A DNA stretch of 61,826 nt, from the NCBI GenBank assembly GCA_964586255.1, contig CAZPGE010000006.1, positions 1 through 61,826 on the forward strand, written 5' to 3'. A program made the position numbers and the translations under genes. The notes beneath the pieces are model-generated. The model saw only the letters and a program-made list of their open reading frames with translations. It was not told where the DNA came from and made no database searches. Positions 1,561 through 49,220 of the stretch are shown piece by piece. Position 1 is the first letter of the stretch. Every line of letters starts with the position of its first letter. The DNA is from an uncultured Candidatus Saccharibacteria bacterium. Lineage in GTDB: Bacteria > Patescibacteriota > Minisyncoccia > Phycocordibacterales > UBA2100.

Positions 1561-2586
1561 ATGAAGAAAAAAGACTCTTCACCTCTCATCGGTGACATTA
1601 TAAAAAAGATAGCGCCCCGCATTGGTGCGAAGGTGGTGATAGAGCCCGAATGGGGTATTGCAGGGCAGATTACATTTAAAAATGGTCTCAAATCCTATTT
1701 TCGATTCAACAGTATCGGTATCAACACACTCGGGGCAGCGGAGATAAGTAAAGACAAAGATTATGCCAATTTCTTCATGCGAAAGATGGGATATCCCACG
1801 ATTCCTGGAAAGACATTCTTTAGCAAAGCGCACTGTGAATCGCTCGGCGTGAAGCGTGGTGCAAGAGAAGCCTGCTTCTATGCAAAAAAGATTGGTTTCC
1901 CAGTCATAGCGAAACCCAATAGCGGGAGTCAGGGAAAAGGTGTGTATCTCGCTCGCAACGAGAAAGAATTGCGAGGTGCGCTTTTATCCATCTTCACGTT
2001 GGACAAAGTCGCTCTCGTGCAAGAAGTGGTGCAAGGGGATGACTACAGGATTGTCGTACTCGACGATAGAGTGATTTCGGCGTACCGGCGCATACCGCTC
2101 AATGTGGTAGGCGACGGCACGTCGACGATTCTGCAGCTTCTCAAGAGGAAGCAGAGGGAATTCGTCGCTGCGAGCCGTGACACACGCCTCAACCCAGACG
2201 ACCCGCGGATACAGAATAAACTTCGAGCTCGAAACTTGAGCCTGGGCTCAGTCCTTCCTCGAGGCGAGAAAGTCTTTCTTTTGGATAATGCGAACCTTTC
2301 CTCCGGGGGAGATGCCGTCGATGTTACGAATATCCTCCACCCCGGATACAGGAAAGTCGCGGTGAGTCTCACGCGTGATATGGGGCTTCGGCTCTGCGGT
2401 GTCGATTTGATGACAGAGGGGGATATTACCAAGCCACCAGAGTACTATAGGATTATTGAGATCAACTCTGCTCCCGGTCTTGATCACTACGCACAGAAAG
2501 GAAGGGCCCAGCGCCGTATCGTCGAACAGCTCTATGAAGAAGTATTGAGAAGTATGAGCGAGACGAAGAGAGTCAAGAGGCGCTAG
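1561..2586 (+). CDS. ATP-grasp ligase, cyanophycin synthetase/GshAB-type ATP-grasp domain (stand-alone)
   Basis: GFPVIAKPNSGSQGKGV, DYRIVVLD, RRIPLNVVGDG, ANLSSGGDAVDVT, CGVDLM and IIEINSAPG. Confidence 0.85.
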   Translation: MKKKDSSPLIGDIIKKIAPRIGAKVVIEPEWGIAGQITFKNGLKSYFRFNSIGINTLGAAEISKDKDYANFFMRKMGYPTIPGKTFFSKAHCESLGVKRGAREACFYAKKIGFPVIAKPNSGSQGKGVYLARNEKELRGALLSIFTLDKVALVQEVVQGDDYRIVVLDDRVISAYRRIPLNVVGDGTSTILQLLKRKQREFVAASRDTRLNPDDPRIQNKLRARNLSLGSVLPRGEKVFLLDNANLSSGGDAVDVTNILHPGYRKVAVSLTRDMGLRLCGVDLMTEGDITKPPEYYRIIEINSAPGLDHYAQKGRAQRRIVEQLYEEVLRSMSETKRVKRR

Positions 2587-5012
2587 CGCCAGTATTTTCG
2601 CGCGAATCCAACATAGCCCCCTATCCCTAAAAGTATGAGCGCTAAAAGGGTGAGCAGGAACAGTGTCCAATCGGTGTCACCCGCTGCTGCAGCAGCTGCG
2701 ACCTGTCCGCGAGTCTCTTCGACGGTCACCGGCGTTTCCTCAGAGGTTAGTGTTTGAGCGGGAATTTGAGCGAGATGCTCTGGAGGCGTATCCCCCTCAA
2801 CTTCTTCCGCAGCACCCGCAAGGATTTCGGCGATAGGCGTACTTGTGGCCTCGGTATTCGCACTTGCAGGGGATGTTGTCGCTATTTCAACAAGTGGGGT
2901 CGTCGTGGCCATCGTTATCACAGGTGTAGACGTAGCAGTCTCAGTCGTGACCAAAACCCCTCCTCCTGTATTCGACGTTGTCTTTGCTGCGGGTCTCGCA
3001 AAACTCGTAAGGAGAGAATTCCAAGTCCTGCCAGTCGCGCCAGGTATAGCGTATTCAGTCGCCCAAATGCGAGTTAGGTCGCTTGCCGACGTGGGCTCTA
3101 CGCCGCCATCGCTTTGCTGAAGCGAAGCGAGGTAGTCGGATGGGTAGAGTCCTCCCACGCTCCACGAAGTTTGCTGTTGTCCGAGTGCCGCAATCGCCTG
3201 CATGGTCCAGCTTGTCGCAGAACTGTTTGCAAAACCTCCCGTGTTTTGCTGCTGCAATCTCAGGTAACTTTCCGCCTTCGTGATTGCTGCGGATACGCCA
3301 GAAAGAGAGCTCAGTGGCGCGAGTGATTGCACGGCGGCGGCGGTGACGTCGACGCCACCTACCCATGACCCGTTTTCCTGCTGTCTCGATAGGATGAATG
3401 CCACGCTCTTGCTTATCATCTCGTCGGCGCTGCTGTATCCCGCATGCGTGAGGGGGAAGAGTGCAAAAATATCATCGTTGTCGAGCGAGGCGTCGCCTAT
3501 TTGCGTGCCGTCGAAGCTCGCTACTATCGGGGCGATGTAGTCGACGCTCGTGCCCGCATACGGGTCAATGCCAAGCGCCATGAGTGCCATTGCGTGGCGA
3601 ATATTATCTTGTACTCCTGAGAGGCCCGGGGCAGTGCTCTCGAGAAATGCCTTGAGCTTGGCCTTTGCTTCGCCTGGATCCGCCGCTGCGAAAGCTATCG
3701 CTGCCCAGTCAGTGAGCAACGAACTGCTGAAGGAACCATCTGCTTCCTGCTTGCTCGAAAGATATGCGAGTGCTGCGGGCACGTTGAAAGTGATATGGCT
3801 GACACCGCCGCCACCACCGCCACCACTTCCGCTCCCGCTTGGCTCGGGTTCCAGGTTTTCTTCCTGAATCACTTCGCGGAGCGCGATGACCCTCACGTCC
3901 TTGGAACTCGACGTGGCATTCGTAATGAAGTTTGTGTAGATAAGTGACATCGTGTCGCCGACGACGAGCGGTAGCGTAATGAGACCTCGCGTCTCTTCGT
4001 ATATACCGTTGTGATACAGCGCCCAATAGGAGGTGCTCGGGTCTTTTATGCCATCGATACTATCGGCGAAAAGGCCTACACCAGCGAACTCGACGAGCTC
4101 ATAGCTCTCTATGTGCCCTTCGTTTTTCGCCTCAACGAGAGCACATATGCCAAGGTACGAATCGGAGAAGTCGTGAGACGAGCCGGTTGTATCCGATACG
4201 GTGCATGCGCTAGGAAGAGAGATGTTGTGGTAGGTATCAAGGAGCGCGTCGATGTGGATATCGACACTAAAATCGAGCGTCGTCTCAGTAAACGTGACTG
4301 GGTCATATGCAGTCAAGACGAGCGAAACAGTGTCACCTGAGGTAAGCGGTAATTCAGACGCGCCGACGTTTGAGCCCGTACCATTTAGATTCAGTTTCCA
4401 GTAACTGTTGGGCAAGGTCGTTCCGTTGACACTGTTGACGAAAAGCCCAAATCCGAAGTCAGCAAATTCGATACTCTCAACCGCGCCTTCATCGACCGCT
4501 TGTTGCAGTGCACATATGGCGAGGTACTCAGTACTCGTGCTAATGGGAAATATATGTGCGATTCCGGTCGCGTCTGCTACCTCACAGCCGTTGTGTAGAT
4601 GTATGGTACTTTCGAGAGCGAAGCCTTGTTGAACTTGCTCTTCCTGCAGCTCGACCGTGACATGAAATGAGGCGGTGCTCGTATTGCCGTGGCTGTCGGT
4701 GGTGCTGCATTCGACGAGTGTATCGCCGAGGGGGAATGAATCCGTACCTGATGCAGGATTGCAGATGACAATTACGCTTTCGTCGATATTGTCGGTTGCG
4801 CTCACGTCGTACGAAGCGGAGAGAACAGCATCTGCGTCTGTCGTGGAGAGTACGATATCCTGTGCGCCGCTCAATACGGGCCCGATGCACTCTGGCAACG
4901 TACACGGCTCTTCAAAGTCACTACCTCCCGGTGCTTCTTCGGATTGCGCATAGGAAACAACAGGAATAAGGAGTAGAGAGCTTACAACGAGCGTGACCCA
5001 GGCATTTTTCAT
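2583..5012 (-). CDS. Surface protein: signal peptide, HYR domain, 2x DUF4430 (transcobalamin-like beta domain), prenyltransferase-like alpha/alpha barrel, C-terminal TM anchor
   Basis: GLFVNSVNG..YWKLNLNG..G..GDTV and GLFADSIDG..YWALYHNG..GDTM; QxxDGSF/QQENGSW/QQNTGGF repeats; HYR-like SATDNID..GDTLVECSTTDSHGNTSTASFHVTV; hydrophobic C-terminus ending RKYWR. Confidence 0.8.
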   Translation of the reverse strand: MKNAWVTLVVSSLLLIPVVSYAQSEEAPGGSDFEEPCTLPECIGPVLSGAQDIVLSTTDADAVLSASYDVSATDNIDESVIVICNPASGTDSFPLGDTLVECSTTDSHGNTSTASFHVTVELQEEQVQQGFALESTIHLHNGCEVADATGIAHIFPISTSTEYLAICALQQAVDEGAVESIEFADFGFGLFVNSVNGTTLPNSYWKLNLNGTGSNVGASELPLTSGDTVSLVLTAYDPVTFTETTLDFSVDIHIDALLDTYHNISLPSACTVSDTTGSSHDFSDSYLGICALVEAKNEGHIESYELVEFAGVGLFADSIDGIKDPSTSYWALYHNGIYEETRGLITLPLVVGDTMSLIYTNFITNATSSSKDVRVIALREVIQEENLEPEPSGSGSGGGGGGGVSHITFNVPAALAYLSSKQEADGSFSSSLLTDWAAIAFAAADPGEAKAKLKAFLESTAPGLSGVQDNIRHAMALMALGIDPYAGTSVDYIAPIVASFDGTQIGDASLDNDDIFALFPLTHAGYSSADEMISKSVAFILSRQQENGSWVGGVDVTAAAVQSLAPLSSLSGVSAAITKAESYLRLQQQNTGGFANSSATSWTMQAIAALGQQQTSWSVGGLYPSDYLASLQQSDGGVEPTSASDLTRIWATEYAIPGATGRTWNSLLTSFARPAAKTTSNTGGGVLVTTETATSTPVITMATTTPLVEIATTSPASANTEATSTPIAEILAGAAEEVEGDTPPEHLAQIPAQTLTSEETPVTVEETRGQVAAAAAAGDTDWTLFLLTLLALILLGIGGYVGFARKYWR

Positions 5013-5031: not shown

Positions 5032-5568
5032 TTAATAACTTTGCTTGTAACGCCACTCAATCAAATCTCCCGCGTGGACAGTAGTCTCTGATACTCCCGC
5101 GTTTGAAGATTTGTCATTTACATAGAGAAACCAGTAGTAGCCGTCCTCTGCGTGCTTGCCGTTGATAGATTCGACAAAGAAGCCAAGCGAAGGGTATTCC
5201 TTTCCTGTAAACACAAGCCCGTCTGACGTCGCGGCCTGCATAGCAGAAAGAAGTGAAGCTCCGTCTTGAGTACAGGGCACGTAGACAGCGCTTTCGATAG
5301 TGATGCGGATGCTGGAGTTGCATGGAAGTGTCGATTCTCGCGCCGTAGGAGTGGGTGCTTCAGGCGACACTTGTGGCTGCACGGAGGCGTTGCCCGGCTG
5401 GGGTACATCAATGACGATGTCTGCACGAGTTTCGTCGAGAGTCGATGTCGCAGCGAAATCGCCGGGACCGTATGAAATTGTGACGTTTGGACGATCGCCA
5501 TACCAAAGCGACGCGACAATGCCCGCGACGAGAAGTGATGCGATTGAGATATAGATTTTGTTCGTCAT
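5032..5568 (-). CDS. Membrane-anchored DUF4430 (transcobalamin-like C-terminal domain) protein
   Basis: N-terminal TM helix, Pro/Thr linker, then LGFFVESINGK..YYWFLYVNDK..AG..VHAGDLIEWRY. Confidence 0.85.
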   Translation of the reverse strand: MTNKIYISIASLLVAGIVASLWYGDRPNVTISYGPGDFAATSTLDETRADIVIDVPQPGNASVQPQVSPEAPTPTARESTLPCNSSIRITIESAVYVPCTQDGASLLSAMQAATSDGLVFTGKEYPSLGFFVESINGKHAEDGYYWFLYVNDKSSNAGVSETTVHAGDLIEWRYKQSY

Positions 5569-5651: not shown

Positions 5652-5767
5652 ACGTTTGAACGATAATCGGACTTTAACCGTTGCGGCACAGTGGAGGAAT
5701 TTCACCCCTCTTCCTATTCGCCGTTTCTATTTTGGCGAATTCCCGCTTTCGCGAGACAGTCAAACGT
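5652..5767 (-). ncRNA. Cobalamin riboswitch aptamer (compact, short-P6 type)
   Basis: Minus strand AGGAA-GAGGGGTGAAATTCCTC-CACTGTGCCGCAACGGT-TAAAGTCCGA matches the GGGAA / GGTGNAANTCC / CTG..GCAACNGT / AAGYCNG core. An 8-bp closing stem ACGTTTGA/TCAAACGT brackets it, and it lies upstream of DUF4430 genes. Confidence 0.9.
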
Positions 5768-13695: not shown

Positions 13696-15039
13696 ATGAA
13701 GCAGGCGATACTCGCCGCAATTATAGTGCTCGGTCCACTTGTGGTACGCGCTGATGTTGCGCAATTTGTGTTTACGACGACAGCTCAGACTGTGGCACCG
13801 AGTGTTGCGACTGAGCAAGTGACGCTTGAGGCGCAGGATGCGTCGGGCCAGCCCGTGAGTGGAAGTACACTCTGTATCCGCATCACATCCTCATCAGGAA
13901 GCGGGCAATTCTCTACGAACACCTCCTGGAGTGACCCTCTGTCTACACTGACACTCACACTGAGCTCAAATCAATCTCGCAGGAATTTCTACTACCGGGA
14001 TGCGTCGAGTGGGTCCCACATACTATCAGCTGAGGCCGCGCCCCGACCGGACGGAAGCACGTGTACGCAATGGTCGCCGGATAGCGGCGTGTCGTGGACC
14101 GCGAGCCACACGGTGACCGTCTCGGGGAGCACTCAAACGACAGAGCAAAACAATACCGCGACTACGACACCATCAGAGAATCAAACGACGAATACAACAC
14201 CGATACAAAATACCCCGGTGACTTCGTATGTGGCGCCCCCTGAGCCGACACTTTTTGCCGACGCTGGCTTAGATAGGGTCGTGATAGTGGGAGCACATAC
14301 AGAATATGTCGCCCGCGCATACAATCGGAAAAAAGAGCCTGTAGGTAACGCGAGTTTTCGATGGAATTTCGGCGATGGCACGACCGCTACTGGCCCATCT
14401 GTCTTGCACCATTTCGAATATCCGGGCAAGTACGTGGTTGTCGCCTCTATATCTCAAGATACGGAGTCGGTCTCGGACCGAATTATCGTGACTGCCGAAC
14501 CTGCGCAGCTCGGTTTCTTTGTCGAGCAAGATGGAAGCGTCAGGATTGATAACAATGCGGGGCGGGACCTCGACCTCTCAGCGTGGATCGTGCGCGCGTT
14601 CTTCCGGGAGTTTTTACTGCCCGAGGACTCAATCATCCTTGCTGGTGCATCTATGCGTATTTCGACCAAGACAATCGGATTCTTTGCAGGACCAGAGACT
14701 GAGCTCGCATACCCCAATGGCGCCCTTGCACTCAAGAGTAATCAAGCGTCTAAGACGGAGGTTGCGCCACCTCCATCTCCAGCGCCAATGCCCATCGTAC
14801 GTGCTCAAACGTCGGTCGCATCAAAAAGGACGCGAACGGTCACTGAAGACGCTGAACAGAAAATCGACCCGATATTCGAGCCCGTGGCAACTTCGCAAGT
14901 TGCCGCGGCTGCTGCAGTTTCGCTCGGAGGCTACTGGTGGCTGGGCGCGCTCGCGCTCGCGGGGATTACTGGGGCTGGTGCAGTAGTAATGAGACGTATG
15001 CGTAGCGGGGAGTGGGATGTGATTGAGGATTCACAATAA
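13696..15039 (+). CDS. Secreted/anchored PKD-domain surface protein (signal peptide, Ig-like region, Thr linker, PKD, lamin-tail-like domain, C-terminal TM)
   Basis: ADAGLDR..FRWNFGDGTTATG..HHFEYPGKY (PKD); IDNNAGRDLDLSAW (LTD-like); C-terminal TM followed by RRMR. Confidence 0.75.
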   Translation: MKQAILAAIIVLGPLVVRADVAQFVFTTTAQTVAPSVATEQVTLEAQDASGQPVSGSTLCIRITSSSGSGQFSTNTSWSDPLSTLTLTLSSNQSRRNFYYRDASSGSHILSAEAAPRPDGSTCTQWSPDSGVSWTASHTVTVSGSTQTTEQNNTATTTPSENQTTNTTPIQNTPVTSYVAPPEPTLFADAGLDRVVIVGAHTEYVARAYNRKKEPVGNASFRWNFGDGTTATGPSVLHHFEYPGKYVVVASISQDTESVSDRIIVTAEPAQLGFFVEQDGSVRIDNNAGRDLDLSAWIVRAFFREFLLPEDSIILAGASMRISTKTIGFFAGPETELAYPNGALALKSNQASKTEVAPPPSPAPMPIVRAQTSVASKRTRTVTEDAEQKIDPIFEPVATSQVAAAAAVSLGGYWWLGALALAGITGAGAVVMRRMRSGEWDVIEDSQ

Positions 15040-44508: not shown

Positions 44509-44982
44509 TTAGAGGACCTTTTTCAGACCCTCGATTCGAGTTCTTACGTTCGGATGAATCGAGTCATCATCAAGGTCGAACCATTTCGTTTTGCTGTGTT
44601 GCTCATCGAGCACGATCGATGCGCTGTCGATGACACAATAGAAGTATATATCCACCGCATGATAGTTCACGCCCTCAAAGATTGATGTTTCGTTTATTTC
44701 GTTTATCGCGCCCACATAGGTGAGTGCGGACGGATCGACTGAGATCCCGATCTCTTCTTTGGTGATACGTATTGCCGCCTGTATGAAATCTTCGTTTTTG
44801 TACATACGACTTCCGAAGCTATAGTATTCACCCTTGTATGGTTCATTTTCACGAAGTCCGAGCAGGATGTGCTTCTTTTGAGCGTCCAGAAACAAAATAT
44901 CAACAGTGACGATGGGGGAGTCTTCCATTCCCTGTCGGTACCGATCTGTGGGGAGTTTCCCGCCGATGGGTAGGTTGCTCAT
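44509..44982 (-). CDS. GDP-mannose mannosyl hydrolase-like NUDIX (Gmm/WcaH-like)
   Basis: [34 protein letters not shown]; lies between gmd and fcl. Start placed at ATG 44982. Confidence 0.8.
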
Positions 44983-46019
44983 GCGGGCTCGTTCTCCAGC
45001 GCACCAAGATCTGCTTCCACCATCAGTTTGATGAGCTCTTTGAATGTCACTTTCGGCTCCCAGCCAAGCTCTTTCTTCGCTTTCGACGCATCGCCAAGCA
45101 GCAGGTCGACCTCTGCGGGTCGGTAATAGTGTGGGTCGATCTCTACGAGTACTTTTCCGGTCTTTTTGTCTACGCCTCGTTCTTTCGCGCCTTTTCCCTT
45201 CCATATGATATCGAAACCAAGAATACGCCCTGCTTCCTCCACGAGTTCGCGTACGGAATGCATCTCGCCCGTCGCGAGGACGTAATCGTCGGGCTTGTCC
45301 TGCTGGAGCATGAGCCACATACCTTCGACATACTCTTTTGCATACCCCCAGTCGCGCTTCGCATCGAGATTTCCGAGATAGAGCTTCTCTTGCTTGCCGA
45401 GCTTAATCCGCGCCATGCCGGCCGTCACCTTGCGCGTGACAAAGGTCTCACCGCGGCGTGGGGATTCATGGTTGAAAAGGATGCCGTTGACGGCAAACAA
45501 CCCGTAGCTCTCGCGGTAGTTTTTTGCTATCCAAAATCCGAAGACTTTGGCGCACCCATAGGGCGAGCGGGGGTGGAACGGTGTTTTCTCGCTTTGCGGC
45601 GTCTCGGCGACTTTTCCAAACATTTCCGATGACGAGGCTTGGTAGAAACGTGTCTTTATACCTGTCTCTCGTATCGCGTCGAGCATACGCAACGTGCCGA
45701 GCGCATCCACATCCGCCGTGTATTCGGGAATATCGAAGCTCACGCGGACGTGGCTCTGCGCGCCAAGATGATAAATCTCATCGGGACGGACCTTTTCGAG
45801 GATGCGGTTCAGACTGCTCGTGTCAGAGAGGTCACCATAATGCAGTCGTAGCCGGACGTTCTTTTCGTGCGGGTCCTGCAAAATGTGTTCTATACGGCCC
45901 GTGTTAAAGCTGCTCGAACGCCGGATGATGCCGTGTACCTCGTATCCCTTTTCAAGCAAGAGTTCGGCGAGGTATGAGCCGTCTTGGCCTGTAATGCCGG
46001 TAATGAGCGCTTTTTTCAT
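44979..46019 (-). CDS. gmd: GDP-mannose 4,6-dehydratase (copy 2)
   Basis: [49 protein letters not shown] and [13 protein letters not shown]. Confidence 0.96.
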
Positions 46020-46108
46020 AGGGTCTTTTTTGTGCATGGTATCCCCGCACACCCTCTTTCGCAAGGAAACTGTTGCAACAGAGAGGTCTCGCGTGCATAC
46101 TGCACCCC

Positions 46109-46939
46109 ATGAAAAAGGGTGCGGCGAAGAAAAGCGCAAACAACGGCCCGCGATGGGTTGCAGTTTCCGGTGGTTTCGACCCCATCCACATTGGACATGT
46201 TCGGATGTTCAGAGATGCAAGAAAATATGGCGACAGGCTTGTCGTGATAGTCAACAACGACAACTGGCTCGTGAATAAGAAAGGATATGCGTTTATGCCG
46301 GAGACTGAACGCAAAGAGCTCATCGAGTCGCTCCCTTTTGTAGACAAAGTCGTTCTCACCGACCACAAGCGGGGAGAGAGTGACACGAGTGTCATCCGTG
46401 CGCTTCGCGCGGTAAAGCCTCACATCTTCGCCAACGGCGGGGATAGAAAGAAACTTTCGGATATCCCCGAGGCGGCAGTGTGCCAAGAGCTCGGTATCGA
46501 CATGGTCTTCAATATAGGTGCAGGCGGGAAAATACAATCCTCTTCGTGGATGATTCAGAATGCGAGCAGGCCTGTAAAGCGCAGCGTACGTCCGTGGGGG
46601 GAATACTACGGTTGGGACCAGGGCGGTGGCTGGAATCTCAAGACTATATATATAAAGCCGAAGAGCCGCCTGAGTCTGCAGTATCATCATTTCCGTACGG
46701 AGTGTTGGCTGCTCGTAGAGGGCGATGCGGTCGCTACGGTACACGATACGAAAGGTAAGGTGTCTAAGATTGCCCTCAAAAAAGGTGTCACGCAGTGTAT
46801 AGGGAAGAAACAAGTGCACCGGCTCGAATCAAAGAGGGGCGGTGTCGTCGTCGAGGTTGCATATGGTCGCTTCGATGAAGACGACATTGTTCGGCTGGAA
46901 GACGACCACGGCCGCCCCACAAAGCGGGTGCGCTCATGA
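46109..46939 (+). CDS. Fusion: HIGH-type nucleotidyltransferase (RfaE/TagD-like) + type II phosphomannose isomerase cupin
   Basis: [18 protein letters not shown] and GGKIQSSS; then RPWG.Y, LSLQYH, HRLES and EDDIVRLED. Confidence 0.85.
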
Positions 46940-46952
46940 TAGAATGCCGACC

Positions 46953-49220
46953 ATGACCGCACTCGAGAAGACGCTCAGATGGATTGCACTTGGCGGTATC
47001 TTTGCCCTCCCTTTTGTAGCCCTCATTGTCTCGTCATCCCTCTTTTTTCCCTACATAACCGGTAAGAACTTTGCGTTTCGCATACTGGTAGAAATAACCA
47101 CTGCGGCCTGGCTTGCTCTTGCAATCGTGAACCCAGCGTATCGACCGCGCCGCTCTCTCGTCCTTGGCGCCCTCGCACTCTTTGTATTCATCATAGGCCT
47201 CGCGGATATTTTTGGTGCGTACGCATTCAAGAGCCTTTGGAGCAACTATGAGCGCATGGACGGGTGGGTGACTATCGCACATCTCCTTGCATATACGATT
47301 GCCGCGTCGGCGATGTTGAATACGGAAAAACTATGGCGATGGCTGTTTTGGACGTCGCTCGGCGTGTCAGCCTACCTCTCTCTCTATGGCCTGTTGCAGG
47401 TTACGGGCAAAGTTGCGCTCGGTCTCGGCGGCGTTACGGGACTTAGTGGCCGAATCGACGGTACGTTTGGCAACCCAATTTACTTTGCCGTGTACATGCT
47501 CTTCCACGTCTTTATTGCTGCCATGCTGCTGGGGCAGCAGTGGGTGGAGAAAGGGCCAGGGAAGCGACTCTATATATCCGTAGCATATGGCTCCGTCATT
47601 GTGCTCGATACGGCCGCCCTCCTTCTCACAGGTACCCGCGGAACGATGCTCGGGCTCATAGGAGGTACTTTGTTGACGGCATTCCTCATGCTGATTCTGG
47701 CTCGAAATTCACGCAACGTGTGGCGTGCCTCCGCTGCGGTCGTAGTAGGTATCGTAGCACTGACAGGTATTTTCATGCTGGTCAAAGACCAGGCCTGGGT
47801 GCAGCGTATCGGATTCTTGCAGCGTCTCGCGAGCATTTCGCTTTCGGACCAAACAACCGAGTCTCGCTTTGTGAACTGGTCTATGGCGTGGGAAGGGGTA
47901 AAGGAGCGACCTTTACTCGGATGGGGACAGGAGAACTATGCACTCGTCTTCGACAAGTACTACGACCCACGCATGTACAAACAGGAGCCGTGGTTTGACC
48001 GTGTGCACAACATTGTCTTCGACTGGCTCGTGGCTGGGGGTTTTATGGGACTCTTCTCATACCTCGCAATCTTTGGAGCGGTGCTCTGGGTTCTTTGGCG
48101 ACCGACCGTCGAGGAAGGAAGTACTGAGGCTAGCAAGCCGTACGTGCGATCGGGCGGTTTTACGATTGCAGAGCGAAGCATCCTCACTGGTCTTCTTGCC
48201 GGGTACTTCGTCCACAATTTCTTTGTGTTCGACAACGTGACGAGCTACATCCTTTTTGGCACCATACTTGCGTTTATTGCACACAGATCGTCCAAGGCGT
48301 CAGGCGCGCCCGCTATTCCAGCTTCGCGCCCCCTATCACAGAATGTCCTCCCCTATGTTGCGGTACTCTGCGCGATAGCACTGCTCTTCGCGGCATGGTC
48401 GGTGAATCAGAAGGCGCTTGCAGCGAATCGGCTCTTGCTCAGTGCACTCAATCCACAGAGCGATGCTTTGATGAAGCTTGACGCTCTTCAAAAGTCTATA
48501 GAACTCGGGACGTATGGCATGCAGGAGGCGAGAGAACAGCTCTCACAGATGGCAGCCACGGCGAGTGGCTCTTCTGGTGTGTCCGACGATGTGAAGAAAA
48601 AGTACTTCGAGACTGCTATCAGCGAGATGCAGATGCAGGCGGCGGCGTCGCCGCTCGATGCGAGATTCCCGCTTTTCATCGGCGTTGTGTACTCAGCTTT
48701 TGGGCAGTATGACAATGCGAAAGTCGCCTATGAAAAAGCGCTTGAGTTGTCGCCGAAAAAACAGTCGATCATGTATTTGCTCGGTGAGAATGCGGGCGTG
48801 AGGGGCGATAGCACCACTGCGCTTTCGTACTACAAGCGAGCGTATGAACTCGAGACATCCAACCGCGAGGCCGCGATGCAATATGCCGCTGCTCTTATTC
48901 GCTTGGGCCAATCAACAGCGGCGGAAGCGCTCATCGCTCCGTATATAGAGAGTGGAAACGCTGCGGACCCACGTATCCTCGCTGCGTATCGCGCGAATAA
49001 TCAAATATCTAGAGCGATTCCAATATGGGAAGCAGGAGTTCGCGCCAATCCCGAAGATGTGCAGGGATACTTCACCTTGGCTGCAATCCACTATCTCTCA
49101 GGCAACTCGGCGAAAGCGATTGCGATACTCGAAGATGTAAAGCGCAAATTACCCGGCGTCGCGGTACAAGCCGATCCAGTGATTGAACAAATACGAGCGG
49201 GCACTGCGGTCGTCCAATAA
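46953..49220 (+). CDS. O-antigen-ligase-like (WaaL/PglL, Wzy_C) membrane protein with C-terminal TPR repeats
   Basis: GTFGNP, LLLTGTRG, ERPLLGWG.EN, DRVHN..D.LV..G; TPR-like YEKALELSPKK. Confidence 0.88.
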   Translation: MTALEKTLRWIALGGIFALPFVALIVSSSLFFPYITGKNFAFRILVEITTAAWLALAIVNPAYRPRRSLVLGALALFVFIIGLADIFGAYAFKSLWSNYERMDGWVTIAHLLAYTIAASAMLNTEKLWRWLFWTSLGVSAYLSLYGLLQVTGKVALGLGGVTGLSGRIDGTFGNPIYFAVYMLFHVFIAAMLLGQQWVEKGPGKRLYISVAYGSVIVLDTAALLLTGTRGTMLGLIGGTLLTAFLMLILARNSRNVWRASAAVVVGIVALTGIFMLVKDQAWVQRIGFLQRLASISLSDQTTESRFVNWSMAWEGVKERPLLGWGQENYALVFDKYYDPRMYKQEPWFDRVHNIVFDWLVAGGFMGLFSYLAIFGAVLWVLWRPTVEEGSTEASKPYVRSGGFTIAERSILTGLLAGYFVHNFFVFDNVTSYILFGTILAFIAHRSSKASGAPAIPASRPLSQNVLPYVAVLCAIALLFAAWSVNQKALAANRLLLSALNPQSDALMKLDALQKSIELGTYGMQEAREQLSQMAATASGSSGVSDDVKKKYFETAISEMQMQAAASPLDARFPLFIGVVYSAFGQYDNAKVAYEKALELSPKKQSIMYLLGENAGVRGDSTTALSYYKRAYELETSNREAAMQYAAALIRLGQSTAAEALIAPYIESGNAADPRILAAYRANNQISRAIPIWEAGVRANPEDVQGYFTLAAIHYLSGNSAKAIAILEDVKRKLPGVAVQADPVIEQIRAGTAVVQ

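Follow-up and report, generated by a model that had tools for sequence, protein, structure and literature searches.

We analysed a window of 61,826 nucleotides that constitutes contig 6 of an 861-kb, 12-contig genome (G000) whose closest protein homologues bear Kaiserbacteria-type Parcubacteria/Paceibacterota names. Two proteins encoded in this window, P0001 and P0002, end in a shared heptapeptide, QVAAAAA, followed by a polar spacer, a hydrophobic helix and basic residues. The gene for P0001 (2583..5012, minus strand; 809 amino acids) specifies a signal peptide, HYR and DUF4430 domains and a transcobalamin/squalene-cyclase-like (TED-like) toroid (domains according to Pfam), a Thr/Pro/Glu-rich linker and the C-terminal anchor module. 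Preceded by ...EETRG, the module opens with the motif QVAAAAAA (residues 770-777; 2682..2705) and runs through the spacer GDTDW (2667..2681), which is variable in length and sequence among orthologues, into the helix TLFLLTLLALILLGIGGYVGF (2604..2666; Kyte-Doolittle window 2.35) and the basic tail ARKYWR (2586..2603), with the stop codon TAG at 2583-2585, all on the minus strand. P0002 (13687..15039, plus strand; 450 amino acids) combines a signal peptide, Ig-like/PKD domains, a weak LTD match (Pfam) and a linker with a module in which the motif QVAAAAA (residues 404-410; 14896..14916) stands directly after A-T-S (...PVATS) and is followed on the same strand by the polar, Gly-containing spacer VSLGGY (14917..14934), the helix WWLGALALAGITGAGAVVM (14935..14991), whose WW[LF]GA start is kept across the family, and the basic cluster RRMR (14992..15003). 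The initial annotation had let P0002 end at RRMR; the basic cluster is there, but the protein continues for 11 residues, SGEWDVIEDSQ (15004..15036, plus strand), a cytoplasmic extension conserved within the PKD/LTD family and absent from P0001.

The two tails otherwise lie where that annotation had placed them, and both proteins have N-terminal signal peptides as well as the Thr/Pro/Glu-rich (here also Ser-rich) linkers that it described. Outside the tail they share no other similarity (best BLASTP E = 2.8). Five of the seven codons of the heptapeptide are not the same in the two genes, each differing in its third position, which places the match at the protein level, as had been proposed. P0001 is the second gene of a two-gene operon whose first, small gene (5032-5568) encodes DUF4430; the operon is preceded by an AdoCbl-II riboswitch at 5658-5726 on the minus strand (37.6 bits vs. 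a gathering score of 36.5). Because many P0001 homologues also carry precomputed PF01122 Cobalamin_bind hits, the label "B12 protein" is reasonable, and the riboswitch supports a putative role of the operon in B12 capture.

Conservation, portability and enrichment of the motif beside anchors

We assessed conservation of the motif in a set of 61 related genomes, with the genus represented by 41 genomes. The pattern [ST]-x-Q-[VTI]-A-A-A-[AGS] is retained by orthologues from ~40 genomes of the genus, within a linker that diverges around it. PKD family orthologues were found in 46/61 related genomes, and 21 of the 30 that were retrieved keep Q-[VTIAL]-A-A-A, most of the others having an Ala-run variant (LAAAG, VAAAAAG). 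The motif in this family is invariably located 6-14 residues upstream of the WW[LF]GA helix, behind a linker that cannot be aligned, and its logo reads [ST]-S-[STA]-Q-[VTA]-A-A-A-[AGS]; in PKD relatives elsewhere in the same order it loosens to [QE]-x-A-A-[AV] with its position unchanged. The B12 family was detected by genome search in this genus only, where 19/22 complete tails keep the motif, and 93-96 of ~120 homologues from a large protein collection have it in the form Q-[TVL]-A-A-[AV]-A (96/119 by one count). Across orthologue tails the sequence of the helix varies freely while the motif stays fixed. The flanks of the motif are rich in Gly, Ser, Pro and Asp, and the polar spacer between motif and helix measures 0-15 residues (median 7).

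The hexapeptide VAAAAA occurs three times in the six-frame open reading frames (ORFs) of at least 60 amino acids in the 861-kb genome, and two of these occurrences are the tails of P0001 and P0002; the conservation in relatives described above is the stronger evidence against chance. We quantified a degenerate form, Q[TVIAL]A[AGS]A, in a 2.55-Mb sample made up of the whole genome and long contigs of six relatives (~three genome equivalents), in which gene calling took the longest ORFs greedily and helices were assigned from hydropathy windows, both of them crude procedures, such that the 54 "C-tail-anchored" candidates include spurious ORFs. Density was 2.3 per 1000 residues in the 30 amino acids before C-terminal helices, 0.28 per 1000 in the 40 amino acids after N-terminal helices and 0.025 per 1000 elsewhere, corresponding to ~90-fold and 11-fold enrichment, respectively. 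When residues were shuffled within each zone, which preserves local composition, 0/2000 shuffles reached the count before C-terminal helices and 14/2000 reached that after N-terminal helices. The match between unrelated proteins thus exceeds chance or composition. Enrichment before C-terminal helices had been put forward beforehand as the observation on which a generic Ala-rich helix cap would stand or fall; at ~90-fold, that objection fails, and the Gly/Ser/Pro/Asp spacer between motif and helix also argues against a generic helix cap, an explanation that we rejected.

A related explanation is that the motif is passive, a short Ala-rich helix or linker kept for spacing or lying on the membrane surface, which nothing reads and which the proteins share by descent or compositional bias. 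Linkers in this lineage are rich in Ala, Ser and Thr, and shuffles of the zones after N-terminal helices already average 1.6 hits against 6 observed. Looser variants that lack the Gln occur (LAAAG, AAAAAG), and some copies are far from any anchor, such as one after PPPPPP in G011. Such a passive element would nevertheless have to account for a Gln and three Ala conserved inside hypervariable linkers in at least six unrelated architectures and in both orientations, for a C-terminal count that no shuffle reached, and for the flexible Gly/Ser/Pro spacer that parts the motif from the helix. We regard it as improbable, more so than any of the other readings considered below.

To describe how far the module extends beyond the two families, we used a tail profile of 42 positions built from 17 tails. 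It matched 40/41 genomes of the genus, with 2-4 clear copies per genome, and identified at least four further architectures, cohesin-like, HYR (Big_9/HYR), DUF11 and LTD-only, all with signal peptides. A cohesin-like family of ~250-290 amino acids without a Pfam match has the tails TSTQVAAAAT, DSQVAAAG and SNQAAAAG, followed by helix and basic residues, and cohesin proteins have a version without Gln, GLAAAAAT. Big_9/HYR and HYR proteins have GQSAAAAAP and TQSASAA, a 1027-amino-acid DUF11 protein has SSSQLAAAG, and short LTD-only proteins are also matched. This spread agrees with the initial view of a lineage-specific functional element common to unrelated secreted proteins. Among the 22 best hits of a position matrix, 7 precede a C-terminal hydrophobic end, 7 follow an N-terminal helix and the rest fall in linkers of exported proteins; 14 of the 22 are within 35 amino acids of a terminal anchor. 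Searches with other settings returned less: an exact 7-mer scan of the 61 relatives gave one orthologue and one linker copy, the pattern being too strict, and a tail-only search of a 5.8-billion protein set gave five close orthologues only. Against 1.84 billion representatives the tail profile gave 23 hits, all C-terminal and all in the same candidate phyla radiation (CPR) families, a scale at which a 42-position profile is underpowered. A weak third copy of the tail was observed in the same genome, in a 268-amino-acid exported protein (G000 contig 4: 120251-121057, minus strand) that ends RQTASAG-VLAIFRNMW-helix-YKWATRPRF; its orthologue in G026 has only MAAAG.

Known sorting enzymes and copies outside the C-terminal setting

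We searched for a cognate enzyme among the known sorting systems. Sortase was found in 33/36 other genomes of the genus but in only 11/24 other genera, and PKD-family tails retain the motif in the sortase-free genomes G058, G039, G059 and G057. Sortase was ruled out as the cognate enzyme on these phyletic grounds, as it does not co-vary with the motif and the motif is kept in sortase-free relatives. The genus has a classical sortase substrate family of its own, ending GVPNTG-helix-RR, which came to light in a scan of the genomes with an LPXTG model that matched mostly helices. Against the two sortases of the present genome stands a single detectable classical substrate, a 366-amino-acid protein ending GVPNTG-helix-RRTQ with GVPNTG-ending orthologues in G013 and G007; the sortase and substrate loci are on contig 1 (42777-43877, plus strand), contig 5 (43364-43957) and contig 3 (52292-53056) of G000. 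The exosortase/archaeosortase family (EpsH family, PF09721) was detected in 0/61 related genomes, rhomboid proteases (PF01694) above cut-off in one and CPBP proteins (PF02517) in two, and all three were ruled out as absent or nearly so. A papain-fold transglutaminase was considered for the invariant Gln and ruled out, since its core is present in 2/61 genomes only. Housekeeping genes in ordinary conserved synteny occupy the ~9 kb between P0001 and P0002 (DUF4430, murD- and murC-like ligases, NUDIX, a methylase, DUF4015, a VirD4-like ATPase), and a dedicated enzyme gene between the two was likewise ruled out. The enzyme classes named in the initial annotation are therefore not borne out, while its statement that no processing enzyme could be named holds, in that no known sorting-enzyme family tracks the motif.

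Profile comparisons gave the same picture. Neither the tails nor the whole proteins were scored at or above cut-off by any NCBIfam C-terminal sorting-domain model: TIGR01167 (LPXTG) scored the tails at 9-11 bits vs. a cut-off of 15.9, aligning the helix only, and gave no hit to the full proteins at E ≤ 1, and the JDVT-CTERM model scored 16.8 bits vs. a cut-off of 27. The tails contain no Cys and no Gly-Gly signature at the start of the helix. In the paper library searched, we found no account of this motif, nor of any sorting signal in Patescibacteria.

The initial annotation had read the tails as a candidate C-terminal sorting signal. In its strict form this would be a new class beside those served by sortase, exosortase/archaeosortase, rhombosortase and myxosortase, with a membrane enzyme that cleaves the protein and transfers it to wall or lipid and with copies at N-terminal anchors being secondary or unrelated. 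The architecture fits. Attributes of tripartite C-terminal sorting domains have been listed (10.1101/2023.06.07.544157, section 5), and the tails show a position near the C-terminus, several copies per genome, at least three near-invariant residues, helix, basic cluster, signal peptide and unrelated carriers, with the caveat that in the PKD family ~11 further conserved amino acids follow the basic cluster. The fixed motif beside a freely varying helix also speaks for a sorting signal, as do carriers with domains typical of wall-anchored adhesins (PKD, HYR, cohesin, DUF11, LTD). As in LPXTG/sortase systems, several unrelated adhesin-type exported proteins per genome end in motif, polar residues, helix and basic residues; unlike in those systems, the motif has no Pro or Thr-Gly, persists in sortase-free relatives and also occurs beside N-terminal anchors. 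P0001 and P0002 likewise share the architecture of PEP-CTERM/exosortase, PGF-CTERM/archaeosortase, GlyGly-CTERM/rhombosortase and MYXO-CTERM/myxosortase substrates, and differ from them in that the motif lacks an invariant Cys, Pro-Glu-Pro or Gly-Gly, has a variable spacer before the helix and is not confined to C-termini.

This last property was apparent in two settings. Each of the 41 genomes of the genus encodes a penicillin-binding-type (S11) protein, and in 14/21 retrieved orthologues of it the motif stands 8-17 residues past the N-terminal helix, in forms that include TTQTAAAAS, PTQVAAASS and ESQVAAAAT; the remaining orthologues have Ala-run variants. Within the B12 family, a full helix was recognised by a hydropathy test in only 27 of the 96 motif-bearing homologues; 48 of the other 69 finish instead with a clear amphipathic stretch of 17-18 residues, FFxxLWxxIxSFFxxLL, which no basic residues follow, and PKD relatives in two other genera likewise end in an amphipathic segment. 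The B12 family thus has two interchangeable C-terminal ends behind the same motif, helix with basic tail or amphipathic end. The motif is therefore not confined to a unit of C-terminal helix and basic tail, and the C-terminal specificity originally assumed did not stand, although the motif-helix-basic architecture did.

The cytoplasmic extension of P0002 also bears on this question. Following the basic cluster, the PKD/LTD family has a strongly conserved consensus, G-K-[KR]-E-W-[DN]-I-[IV]-E-E, which would be unexpected for a segment that is merely cut off and discarded. Looser forms occur in other genera of the order (EFEILED, DFEIIEQ, EYKIIE, DFTLVE), and in the 2.55-Mb sample EWDIVEE-type tails were restricted to the PKD/LTD family. 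A dedicated C-terminal signal is difficult to reconcile with this continuation of the PKD tail, with the motif at the N-terminal anchor of the penicillin-binding-type protein, with the B12 homologues that have no full helix, with a spacer ranging from none to 15 residues, and with the lack of both a conserved neighbouring enzyme gene and a known sorting-enzyme family that tracks the motif. We consider it distinctly unlikely.

Candidate readers of the motif

Based on the distribution described above, the motif probably represents a docking or cutting site of an envelope enzyme. Its hosts appear to be membrane-tethered exported proteins of Kaiserbacteria-type Parcubacteria, in which the predicted site is in a flexible linker ~5-15 residues outside the cytoplasmic membrane. 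The reading that we prefer, and in which we place about even confidence, is that QVAAAAA exemplifies a short linear motif peculiar to this lineage, [ST]-x-Q-[VTI]-A-A-[AV]-[AGS], which forms a conserved island of five to eight residues and would be recognised by a general envelope factor near the membrane surface. In P0001 and P0002 the motif would then form the outermost part of a C-terminal anchor module of motif, spacer, helix and basic residues. Since the motif also occurs beside N-terminal anchors and amphipathic ends, its reader would be a general factor and not a dedicated enzyme that requires a C-terminal helix and basic tail.

What such a factor does to the proteins is suggested by the composition of the motif. 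In logos of the two large families, positions 2, 3 and 5 after the Gln are almost exclusively small (Ala 88-97%, otherwise Gly or Ser), with Ala, Gly and Ser together making up at least 94% at positions 3 and 5; position 4 holds either Ala or Val (34% Val in the B12 family), and the common residues at position 6 do not include Pro. If the cut falls behind position 5, this pattern of small, small, any, small corresponds to the -3/-1 rule of type I signal peptidase, which asks for small residues at both -1 and -3, leaves -2 free and bars Pro from +1. The genome has one LepB-type type I signal peptidase (G000 contig 3, 117657-118262), and on these grounds we rank proteolytic processing first. Ectodomains would first be held at the membrane and then undergo an endoproteolytic cut at the Ala run, Q-x-A-A-[AV]-[AGS]|, made by a protease with Ala-x-Ala specificity, for which the one type I signal peptidase that the genome encodes would be the simplest candidate; the cut would release the ectodomains or hand them to the wall. 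We infer processing at the Ala run to be the likeliest single event, with a confidence that falls somewhat short of even.

The resemblance to a signal peptidase I site consists of the small/any/small run, the absence of Pro at +1 and the short distance from the outer membrane surface. Several points weigh against processing of this kind. A canonical signal-peptidase site is just C-terminal of a segment with its N-terminus inside and its C-terminus outside; in P0001 and P0002, as at other C-terminal anchors, the site instead precedes the helix, so that the canonical arrangement is inverted. At N-terminal helices 13-22 residues separate the helix from the cut, which is long for a signal peptide and exceeds a normal c-region. 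The invariant Gln, five residues upstream of the site, is not explained by signal-peptidase specificity, and conservation of the cytoplasmic EWDIVEE tail in the PKD family points to a functional role of the membrane protein in its full-length form. One would expect a penicillin-binding protein to remain tethered. Gln and Ala content served as the reference on which the logos were built, which makes them partly circular, and the gene and helix calls mentioned above are crude. Cleavage at the motif is putative.

We also considered a cut just before the Gln, given that mature N-termini often start with QVA, and rejected it, as the -3/-1 positions fit poorly in the penicillin-binding-type set. Predicted mature N-termini of many exported proteins were observed to start with Gln, often as Q-V-A or Q-V/I-x (…A-x-A|QVA…), with examples in P0001, P0008, P0017, P0024, P0025 and the LTD proteins in L193-L203; Gln was at +1 in ~10% of candidate signal peptides by a crude count.

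The main rival to proteolysis is that the motif may be an acceptor or docking site for a general modification, the most plausible case being that a Wzy_C-type transferase embedded in the membrane O-glycosylates Ser/Thr in its vicinity. Orientation independence and closeness to the membrane would fit an enzyme with its active site in an outer loop. Around the motif, Ser and Thr are over-represented at -3 to -1 and again at +5 to +9, and the commonest substitution within the Ala run is Ser (QTASA, QAASA); however, none of the flanking Ser or Thr is invariant, the invariant residues being Gln and Ala, and some copies, including that of P0001 (TRGQVAAAAAAGDTD), have no Ser or Thr immediately beside the motif. 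The bacteria concerned lack lipopolysaccharide (LPS), and Wzy_C was nevertheless found in 58/61 related genomes, a near-universal presence that has no discriminating power and could reflect a plain polysaccharide polymerase. The candidate in the window (46842-49220, plus strand) is a 792-amino-acid protein with ~10-12 membrane helices, a Wzy_C (O-antigen-ligase-type) domain and C-terminal TPR repeats, and adjoins a GDP-mannose 4,6-dehydratase gene, gmd (44979-46139). No PglL-specific domain is listed for this protein, and a rough topology count places its TPR domain possibly in the cytoplasm. The preference of the transferase PglL for Ser flanked by Ala in disordered Ala/Pro-rich regions, with WPAAASAG as the optimal motif (PMC8423747), resembles the setting of the motif described here. 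PglL systems in Neisseria and Burkholderia (PMC8423747, PMC4850263) are alike in a short Ala-rich motif, disordered segments, tethering at either end and the presence of a Wzy_C-family gene, and unlike in that the motif here has no invariant Ser, the CPR host is monoderm and the Wzy_C protein carries TPR repeats. By analogy with these systems, glycosylation is possible but doubtful.

A narrower version of enzymatic recognition combines elements of the above. One enzyme outside the sortase, exosortase, rhomboid and CPBP families would read S-S-Q-V-A-A-A ~5-15 residues above the membrane, whichever tether the protein has (N-terminus, C-terminus or amphipathic end), and then cut it or transfer it to the wall or for release. 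We think this unlikely; if true, ultra-small Parcubacteria would have a surface-protein sorting system of their own that is independent of orientation and adds another class to those known.

CPR/Patescibacteria live attached to other cells and, to our knowledge, almost nothing is known of how they mount or release surface proteins. The motif marks a small and defined set of such proteins, comprising a putative riboswitch-controlled B12 binder and PKD, LTD, HYR, cohesin and DUF11 proteins, independently of known sorting enzymes. Membrane-proximal recognition motifs and anchor modules are of a known kind, and the chance that the present motif marks a new processing system is modest. Should the motif be a processing or modification site, it would help to predict from sequence which proteins these uncultivated bacteria display or shed, and it would supply concrete peptide substrates for the search for the enzyme (for example PVATSQVAAAAAVSLGG and ETRGQVAAAAAAGDTDW). 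It would also exemplify a membrane-proximal signal that works in either orientation, and we know of no described prokaryotic sorting signal that does so. If it is passive, the motif would still be useful for flagging anchor modules when genomes of this lineage are annotated.

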